From a virus, in IMG/VR virus record IMGVR_UViG_2802428989_000001, positions 1 through 64,000 of that record: a DNA stretch of 64,000 bases. One strand, written 5' to 3'. Positions 19,427 to 19,764 of this stretch are shown here, piece after piece. Position numbers and translations under genes: made by a program. The notes below the pieces were generated by a model. That model was not told the DNA's origin, did not search any database, and saw nothing but the letters and a program-made list of their open reading frames with translations. Within the stretch, counting starts at the first letter, position 1. Each line of letters opens with the position of its first letter.

Positions 19427-19764
19427 CGCTGCGCAGATGCTTCGACTGTTTCAGTGTTTCAGCCAGTGAAACAGTCGAGTTGAAACAGTCAGCACGGTGT
19501 GTGACTGGCGACTGTTTCAGAAACCCTAAAGGGTTTCTGAACACAGGTCGCGAAACAGTCACCCCGTTCACCGTATGGCTGACCGGCTCGAAACAGTGGA
19601 TGAAACCCATCCGCGACGTGTTGGGTGGTCTCGCGTTCACGTTGGGTGGCCTCGTCGTGGCATCCACATCAAGCGCTGGGACATCAATCATCAACCGACG
19701 TGTGATTGAGCGTCGGGAGTCGAAACAACGCTCCAGGGAGGTTCTGGGATGTCTCACGCAGTGA
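19423..19764 (+). CDS. Questionable ORF overlapping the iteron array.
   Basis: Open frame, but the DNA is dominated by GAAACAGTC repeats, so it may be non-coding origin DNA. Confidence 0.25.
   Translation: MTLRRCFDCFSVSASETVELKQSARCVTGDCFRNPKGFLNTGRETVTPFTVWLTGSKQWMKPIRDVLGGLAFTLGGLVVASTSSAGTSIINRRVIERRESKQRSREVLGCLTQ
19444..19598. repeat. Iteron array: at least 7 copies of GAAACAG(T)/CTGTTTC in both orientations, with a central AAACCCTAAAGGGTTT palindrome.
   Basis: Copies at 19444-54, 19455-62, 19466-76, 19480-90, 19510-20, 19551-60 and 19589-98. Palindrome at 19521-19536. Confidence 0.6.

Follow-up and report, generated by a model that had tools for sequence, protein, structure and literature searches.

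A short array of repeats directly behind the helicase gene of a mycobacterial prophage is, in our judgement, probably a phage replication origin of the iteron type, bound by a self-loading initiator-helicase encoded just upstream. The array occupies 19444-19598 of the 64,000-nucleotide stretch of viral record IMGVR_UViG_2802428989_000001 analysed here (the window, whose positions are used throughout). Over positions 17000-21000 the window matches Mycobacterium phage prophiFSAT01-1 (BK061308.1), a Mycobacteroides abscessus prophage of cluster MabR, at 100% identity, with window coordinates 217 lower than those of the record. Four further MabR prophages at 77-95% identity, namely McProf, prophiFSIL01-1, prophiFVLQ01-1 (FVLQ01) and prophiFSQJ01-1 (FSQJ01), complete the five-phage set compared below; in McProf the equivalent of the array lies at ~18.65-18.8 kb of the record. 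The gene order is gene 37, annotated as a 'DnaB-like dsDNA helicase', gene 38, hypothetical, and gene 39, encoding RusA; the published description of the MabR cluster is silent on replication, helicase, origin and iterons. A first-pass annotation of the window had proposed a candidate origin at this place, and our computational tests favour that proposal through the conservation of the iterons, the linkage of such arrays to related helicase genes and a winged helix modelled in the helicase.

The word GAAACAG occurs 19 times in the whole window, against 6.08 copies expected, and six exact copies, four on the plus strand and two on the minus strand, fall within 19446-19596. For a length of 155 bp the expectation is 0.015 copies, and the Poisson probability of six or more is ~1e-14, or ~6e-12 when corrected for all windows. 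Indeed, in a strand-collapsed scan for 7-mer clusters the array ranks first in the 64 kb, with six copies against four for the runner-up, and it is the only cluster with at least five. The longer 9-bp word GAAACAGTC has five exact copies in the array, GAAACAGTG occurs once at 19590, and a seventh copy is the one-mismatch variant AGTGTTTC at 19453-19460. The count of at least seven copies in 155 bp given by the first-pass annotation thus holds if this variant is admitted, but not for exact copies, of which there are six. Its placement of the array, past the stop codon of gene 37, inside the open reading frame (ORF) of gene 38 and ahead of rusA, was correct, and the first iteron begins 18 bp past the gp37 stop. 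Read on the plus strand, the orientations of GAAACAGTC run - - + + - [dyad] + +. Iterons 1 and 2 are in tandem with 8-bp spacing and have one C in common; from centre to centre the seven copies are 8, 16, 14, 28, 42 and 38 bp apart, which follows no simple 10.5-bp rule of helical phasing. The array has a GC content of 47% over 100 bp, in the lowest ~1% of the window.

The iterons are arranged around a central dyad. This had been described as a 16-bp perfect palindrome, AAACCCTAAAGGGTTT (19521-19536), which it is not; the true feature consists of two 12-nt arms (19516-19527 and 19530-19541) that are 100% complementary and separated by a 2-nt AA spacer, and it extends as an imperfect dyad of 44 nt over 19508-19551. 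Iterons 5 (minus) and 6 (plus) stand on opposite sides of this short 38%-GC centre in opposed orientations. Just 8 of 23 palindrome columns are invariant across the five MabR phages, and the symmetry is retained nonetheless: FSQJ01 carries a compensatory change, GA to AG on one arm and TC to CT on the other, and in FVLQ01 the inner arms have been swapped for an unrelated complementary pair, TTTTCTC/GAGAAAA.

Of the iteron columns in the five-phage alignment, 59 of 62 (95%) do not vary, compared with 32 of 70 spacer columns (46%; Fisher p = 2.5e-10), and by this comparison it is the DNA of the iteron words that is conserved rather than their codons. The first-pass annotation had named, as evidence that would refute an origin, homologous phages that keep the ORF and lack the iterons; all five MabR phages have both, with the iterons near-invariant.

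The product of gene 37 is the putative initiator-helicase. Its AlphaFold model (76 homologues; pLDDT, the predicted local distance difference test score, 87) comprises four parts (Table 1), and PriCT_1 was matched in 3 of the 76 homologues. Searching the Protein Data Bank (PDB) with the model by Foldseek gave as best match the hexameric helicase RepA of RSF1010 (1olo/1g8y/1nlf; E 2e-10, template modelling (TM) score 0.69-0.71), followed at lower rank by DnaB, KaiC and RecA/RadA. When the C-terminal domain was modelled alone (pLDDT 85.5), its matches were to winged-helix folds only, among them ArsR, Fur, Zur, MarR, ORC2-WH, histone H1 and SSV1 F-93; MarR_2 and RPA_C were matched in one gp37 homologue each. 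A phmmer search of gp37 against PDB sequences returned nothing useful. The earlier label 'primase/helicase' did not survive, as the Prim-Pol is encoded by a separate gene, gp23, which is likely the priming partner of the replicon.

Among the 5.8 billion clustered proteins, gp37 has at least 741 homologues. In distant relatives, including those at loci L010-L014 and L020 of the comparison set below, a Prim-Pol is fused at the N-terminus, and in L025, L027 and the P0014 contig a Prim-Pol gene lies just upstream of the helicase gene. Searched by tblastn with gp37 and a fused relative, 50,697 phage records yielded close matches in the five MabR records only, so the helicases of studied corynephages and Gordonia phages could not be used for comparison. 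The helicase ORFs of L008, L010 and L011 continue past the winged-helix region into a tail of the pattern CxxC...CxxC, resembling a zinc ribbon; the iteron arrays of L010 and L011 fall between the part coding for the winged helix and this tail.

The comparison covered 19 non-MabR loci that encode helicase homologues of 33-52% identity, drawn from Mycolicibacterium, Mycobacterium, M. abscessus islands, Nocardiopsis, Plantactinospora, Halostreptopolyspora, Nesterenkonia, metagenome-assembled genomes, IMG/VR contigs and a circular Rhodococcus element. At 13 of the 19 (L007, L008, L010-L013, L020 and L022-L027) the densest 7-mer cluster of the locus, with 5-9 copies per 200 bp, falls within -200 to +400 relative to the stop codon of the helicase gene. 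The word differs by lineage: CACTGTGCC in L007, CAGTTCGTC in L008, CAGTGTGCC in L022, CAGTGCGCC in L023, CAGTTTCCC in L024, GACCGTGC in L025, GCCCCAC in L026 and ACTGGGCC in L027, with unrelated words in L010-L013 and L020. Four arrays (L008, L023, L025 and L026) lie within gene-free gaps of 157-503 bp, and a 57%-identical relative for which we had the gene table only (P0004) has a gene-free gap of 295 bp from the helicase gene to RusA; the arrays of L010-L012 overlap the 3' end of the helicase coding sequence. Closest to the MabR design is an M. fortuitum prophage (L024), with the order helicase, array, RusA, an orientation string + - - + dyad - - that we rated the same as that of MabR, and a palindrome GGGGCCCTTAAAGGGGCCCC centred on TTAAAG. 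L008, L022, L023 and L026 have tandem iterons spaced by 8 bp and, after these, inverted iterons that enclose a TATA-like core (TTATAG, TATATAA, TATATAG). The 15.9-kb circular Rhodococcus element pDJL3 (L028) has a helicase homologue and a single array of nine copies.

The helicase gene is the sole constant partner of these arrays. The gene 3' of the array varies, encoding RusA, Endonuclease_7, PDDEXK_15 or a protein of no known family, or being a convergent gene, and the small genes upstream are not conserved. We considered and rejected a conserved small upstream protein as the iteron binder: gp36 is kept within MabR only, no alignment is seen for the ORFs upstream of the helicase gene in other lineages, and gp36 has no match in Pfam, PHROGs or NCBIfam.

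Table 1. Features of the helicase and array region, in window positions (aa, residues of gp37)
Feature	Position	Strand	Description
gp23, stand-alone Prim-Pol primase-polymerase	12349..13056	+	Pfam Prim-Pol, E 1.5e-33
gp37, putative initiator-helicase	17783..19426	+	Pfam AAA_25, E 4e-21, sole Pfam match
gp37 PriCT-like four-helix bundle	aa 58-136; nt 17954-18190	+	G-x-RN-x-x-L motif; AlphaFold model
gp37 long helix	aa 178-215	+	AlphaFold model
gp37 RecA-like AAA_25 core	aa ~229-465; nt 18467-19177	+	Pfam; core at aa 239-465 in AlphaFold model
gp37 C-terminal winged-helix-like domain	aa 468-544; nt 19184-19414	+	H-H-b-H-H-b-b topology; predicted recognition helix aa ~509-521; model
Gene 38 (gp38), 113-codon ORF over the array	19423..19764	+	annotated hypothetical
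Iteron 1	19444..19452	-	plus strand reads GACTGTTTC (GAAACAGTC on minus); exact; invariant in five MabR phages
Iteron 2, variant	19452..19460	-	CAGTGTTTC on plus; one mismatch; invariant in five phages
Iteron 3	19468..19476	+	GAAACAGTC
Iteron 4	19482..19490	+	GAAACAGTC; 14 bp past iteron 3; one substitution in FVLQ01
Iteron 5	19510..19518	-	GACTGTTTC on plus; abuts/overlaps central dyad
Central interrupted palindrome	19516..19541		TTCAGAAACCCT-AA-AGGGTTTCTGAA; 38% GC, lowest ~1% of window 26-mers
Iteron 6	19552..19560	+	GAAACAGTC; inverted relative to iteron 5 across dyad; one substitution in FSQJ01
Iteron 7	19590..19598	+	GAAACAGTG
rusA, Holliday-junction resolvase	19749..20216	+	Pfam RusA, E 1e-16; next gene 3' of gene 38
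Iteron-word mini-cluster	25984..26027		ACTGTTTC, AGTGTTTC, then inverted GAAACGGTC, plus a GAAACGC

We envisage the following sequence of events at such an origin. The winged helix of gp37 would read the iterons, and protomers would assemble on both sides of the dyad and form rings there, while the low-GC dyad would melt or be extruded as hairpins. The ring helicase would thereby load itself, with no separate initiator or loader, after which the Prim-Pol gp23 would prime on the exposed single strands and a host polymerase would take over.

Several observations weigh against an origin recognised by gp37. Six of the 19 related loci have no array at the 3' end of the helicase gene: no array of at least five copies was found in L006, L009, L015 and L021, and the array stands 2.2 kb from the helicase stop in L014 and 0.7 kb from it in pDJL3. 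The winged-helix matches of the C-terminal model (probability 0.95-1.0, TM 0.5-0.65) are individually weak, with E values of 0.014 or more. The array holds no long AT-rich unwinding element, just the 26-bp, 38%-GC dyad, and GC skew over the window has no extremum there. Frame +1 of gene 38 is free of stop codons across the array in 5 of 5 phages, compared with 0.9% of shuffles, and so a protein product is possible. Finally, a second conserved cluster of the word elsewhere in the window means that whatever binds the array has a further target or targets and could in principle be a protein other than gp37.

This second site is a mini-cluster (Table 1) in the 217-bp intergenic region between the HNH endonuclease gene and terS, upstream of terS; its words are invariant in FSQJ01 and FVLQ01 and its flanks vary. 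By analogy with crr in phage P4, the initiator may bind here too, or else the mini-cluster may be a link to late transcription or packaging, or the target of another binder. Between the HNH gene and terS there is also a block of ~60 bp (25860-25925; GGGGAGGGGAACCCCCTGGGG...CCCCGGTTGGCATAGGCGCTGGGGCTCCG) that is near-invariant in three divergent MabR phages and is a candidate cos or terminase recognition region. It is mainly because of the mini-cluster that we have kept a regulatory and a packaging explanation of the array open.

According to the regulatory explanation, the array would be a set of operator sites for gp37 or another DNA-binding protein, controlling rusA and downstream genes or gene 37 itself, and the mini-cluster just upstream of terS, with the same word, would control the late genes likewise. 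A regulatory role has also been suggested for the repeats at the 3' end of the RepAM gene of pMEA300 (PMC2440964). However, no sigma-70-like promoter was found on scanning 19200-20000, the arrays follow the 3' end of the helicase gene regardless of the gene downstream, and those of L010-L012 overlap helicase coding sequence. Seven to nine sites around a low-GC dyad would also be atypical of an operator, and we consider this explanation unlikely.

The functional unit might instead be hairpins in single-stranded DNA or in mRNA, either ssi-like sites for the Prim-Pol or a structure governing helicase-rusA expression, with the repeats serving merely as stems. The predicted single-strand fold of the array region is indeed very stable (-45.6 kcal/mol, z = -7.3), its central stem has been kept by the compensatory changes in FSQJ01 and FVLQ01, and both the ssiA/ssiB hairpins of RSF1010 and a stem-loop just 3' of the pRN1 replication gene (PMC4234260) offer precedents. 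Yet iterons 4, 6 and 7 are unpaired in that fold and still near-invariant, and the direct 8-bp tandem copies of L008, L022 and L023 cannot pair as stems. Nor did the scan of 19200-20000 reveal an intrinsic terminator or an Rfam family, its sole Rfam match being a sub-threshold microRNA that we took as chance. Hairpins as the whole explanation therefore seem quite improbable to us, but they could belong to the origin, and to that extent the two readings are compatible; the stability of the fold counts in favour of the origin as well.

Less probable again, and in our view very unlikely, is that the repeats are packaging sites of the small terminase or serve some other system outside replication, such as partition or recombination. 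The mini-cluster does lie between the HNH endonuclease gene and terS, where cos or terminase-binding sites are expected in HNH-terminase phages; the main array, however, is 6.5 kb from terS and tied to the helicase gene across many lineages, the single array of pDJL3 does not adjoin a terminase gene, and no par genes are annotated near the array.

This leaves gene 38, which is annotated in all five MabR phages and overlaps its neighbours through ATGA and GTGA. Its substitutions by codon position (1:2:3) are 32:42:39 relative to FSQJ01 and 18:23:30 relative to FVLQ01, whereas the flanking genes have an excess at the third position (gp37 89:68:226, rusA 32:23:84); its GC content by codon position is 0.50/0.54/0.61, compared with ~0.65/0.47/0.75 in neighbouring genes. 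The FVLQ01 copy contains indels of +4, -1, +1 and -1, compensated frameshifts that restore the frame and leave a protein that is unrelated in the middle, at 40% identity; identity among MabR phages goes down to 40-48%, while the repeat DNA is near-invariant. The conserved ends of gp38 coincide with iterons and with the ribosome-binding site and start of rusA. Among 5.8 billion clustered proteins gp38 has no homologue beyond MabR (two protein clusters matched, both MabR), and it matches nothing in Pfam, PHROG or NCBIfam. Conservation of the ORF at the protein level, which the first-pass annotation had named as evidence against an origin, is thus not what we see. As to its suspicion that the ORF may be spurious, the frame is open in all five phages, so that the ORF is probably not simply spurious. 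An open frame over the array seems to have been selected, though not the sequence of gp38, perhaps for ribosome read-through towards rusA, and gp38 is probably a read-through or fast-evolving ORF on a DNA element rather than a conserved protein. An origin within an ORF has a comparable case in phage lambda, whose origin lies inside gene O. That gp38 is an ordinary coding gene, its repeats reflecting a repetitive peptide or chance, is hardly credible despite the overlaps, the universal open frame and the frame-restoring indels, given the lack of third-position bias, the atypical codon-position GC, the absence of homologues outside MabR, a protein so much less conserved than the repeat DNA and the equivalent arrays of relatives in gene-free DNA; besides, repeat copies in both orientations cannot encode one repeated peptide.

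Some further features of these loci deserve mention. An antisense frame of 122 codons (19389-19757, minus strand) is open in four of the five MabR phages and is probably a by-product of the sense frame staying open. The annotated start of rusA is GTG 19761; an alternative in-frame ATG at 19749, preceded by GGGAGG (19734-19739), is kept in all five phages, and the true start may be 12 nt further upstream than annotated. A nuclease gene follows the array in several relatives, with a family that differs by lineage (RusA, Endonuclease_7, PDDEXK_15; L024 1894-2442, L027 3904-4371, L007 4852-5223, L008 4732-5100; the L008 gene resembles that of L007 by eye only), which suggests that junction-resolving or structure-specific nucleases are held there by a synteny of function rather than sequence. 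L007 has an extra ORF of 138 codons between helicase gene and array (4439-4855), without a Pfam match; over its first ~70 codons it is richer in AT than the DNA around it, and iterons overlie its last third. Three more copies of the L012 word, GGTCTCA, occur at 2904-2925 of that locus, ~1.25 kb upstream of its main array and within the Prim-Pol-helicase gene. The M. abscessus and Mycobacterium loci L022, L023 and L026 and the Rhodococcus pDJL3 are all small integrative elements, in which an integrase gene, an HTH_17 or other helix-turn-helix (HTH) gene, the helicase gene and the iteron array are followed in that order by genes for capsid, terminase or tape measure. They resemble satellite islands akin to phage-inducible chromosomal islands, or mini-prophages, and pDJL3 was assembled as a circular 'plasmid'.

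Lytic origins of mycobacteriophages and of M. abscessus prophages are essentially unmapped. The element described here is of a classical kind; what would be new, as far as these comparisons of genes and models go, is its attachment to a RepA-like helicase class and a layout common to a large, uncharacterised family of actinobacterial prophages and islands. We found no description of origin recognition by this helicase class in the literature searched. More tentatively, and with rather less than even confidence, we propose that gp37 and its more than 700 homologues form a class of self-loading replicative helicases that has not yet been described, distributed over the prophages, satellite-like islands and small circular elements of actinobacteria. 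Its members would combine a RecA-fold, RepA-like motor of helicase superfamily 4 (SF4) type with an acquired C-terminal winged helix and either a PriCT bundle or a fused Prim-Pol, and would use lineage-specific iterons of 7-10 bp after or inside the end of their own gene, in convergence with the superfamily 3 (SF3) proteins of Staphylococcus aureus pathogenicity islands (SaPIs), P4 and pRN1; in MabR the helicase would also bind the second cluster, next to cos/terS, and thereby couple replication with late expression or packaging. If so, a ring helicase of the RepA/DnaB type would itself recognise the origin, as has been documented until now for SF3/AAA+ initiators. A helicase and iteron cassette of ~2 kb would be directly testable and, should it prove functional, could provide new replicons for the genetics of M. 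abscessus, M. chelonae and other actinobacteria, which would be mutually compatible because the iteron word differs by lineage. The annotated 'hypothetical protein' gp38 and its equivalents can meanwhile be flagged as most likely by-products of a DNA element.

How does this system compare with known replicons? RSF1010/IncQ is closest in its motor, as the gp37 core best matches RepA, and both systems have a ring helicase, a primase of the archaeo-eukaryotic type, iterons and a hairpin-forming inverted repeat; RSF1010 moreover uses its ssiA/ssiB hairpins with the RepA-type helicase (PMC4234260). RSF1010, however, requires a separate iteron-binding protein, RepC, its RepA having no DNA-recognition domain, whereas gp37 itself is modelled with PriCT-like and winged-helix domains; its iterons are 20 bp long, compared with 9 bp here. 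The annotated neighbourhood of the array contains no RepC-like gene, although no search was aimed at RepC.

RepAM of pMEA300 (te Poele et al. 2006, reviewed in PMC2440964) was shown to bind a set of identical repeats of 8 bp, able to form a hairpin, at the 3' end of the gene that encodes it; it belongs to DUF3631/PF12307 (PMC3218068). The likeness, an actinobacterial mobile element with short hairpin-capable repeats where the rep gene ends and frequently a Prim-Pol neighbour, is one of analogy only: RepAM is of another protein family and is proposed to replicate by rolling circle from a nick site. Membership of gp37 in that family was rejected because the Pfam family differs, PF12307 being unmatched in gp37 and all 76 homologues at E <= 0.01 and AAA_25 being matched.

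In phage P4 a single polypeptide, the alpha protein, is a helicase and also binds short iterons through its C-terminal winged helix, and a second iteron cluster, crr, lies kilobases from ori. The pair of ori and crr parallels the main array and the terS-proximal mini-cluster; alpha differs in its Toprim primase and SF3 helicase, and ori does not adjoin the alpha gene. For ORF904 of pRN1 the origin lies just 3' of the replication-protein gene and includes a conserved stem-loop (PMC4234260). It shares with the fused relatives L010-L014 and L020 the logic of primase, helicase and winged helix, and differs in its archaeal host, its SF3 motor and the lack of iterons.

In layout the system matches the Rep/ori of the SaPIs (Ubeda et al. 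2007, 2012; Qiao et al. 2022, PMC9371898, also for PriRep). There the C-terminal winged helix of Rep recognises iterons of 5-6 nt, 6-12 of which lie directly 3' of the rep ORF, and the ori has an AT-rich centre with iterons on either side in opposed orientation (PMC9371898). Iterons just 3' of the helicase ORF, an AT-richer centre, opposed flanking iterons, a lineage-specific word and a primase that is separate or fused are all common to both, and a C-terminal winged helix would be so too if the gp37 model is right. The differences lie in the motor, which is AAA+ SF3 in SaPI Rep and in gp37 a RecA-like AAA_25 core nearest to the SF4-type RSF1010 RepA, and so unlike the SF3 motors of the D5/P4 type; in the primase, here an archaeo-eukaryotic Prim-Pol; and in the low-GC centre, here a short dyad and not an AT-rich tract. 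As its motor is unlike those of SF3 (SaPI, P4, pRN1) or DUF3631 (RepAM), and as RSF1010 RepA needs RepC, gp37 falls into none of these families by descent, but by analogy its system appears to work like the Rep/ori type of the SaPIs.

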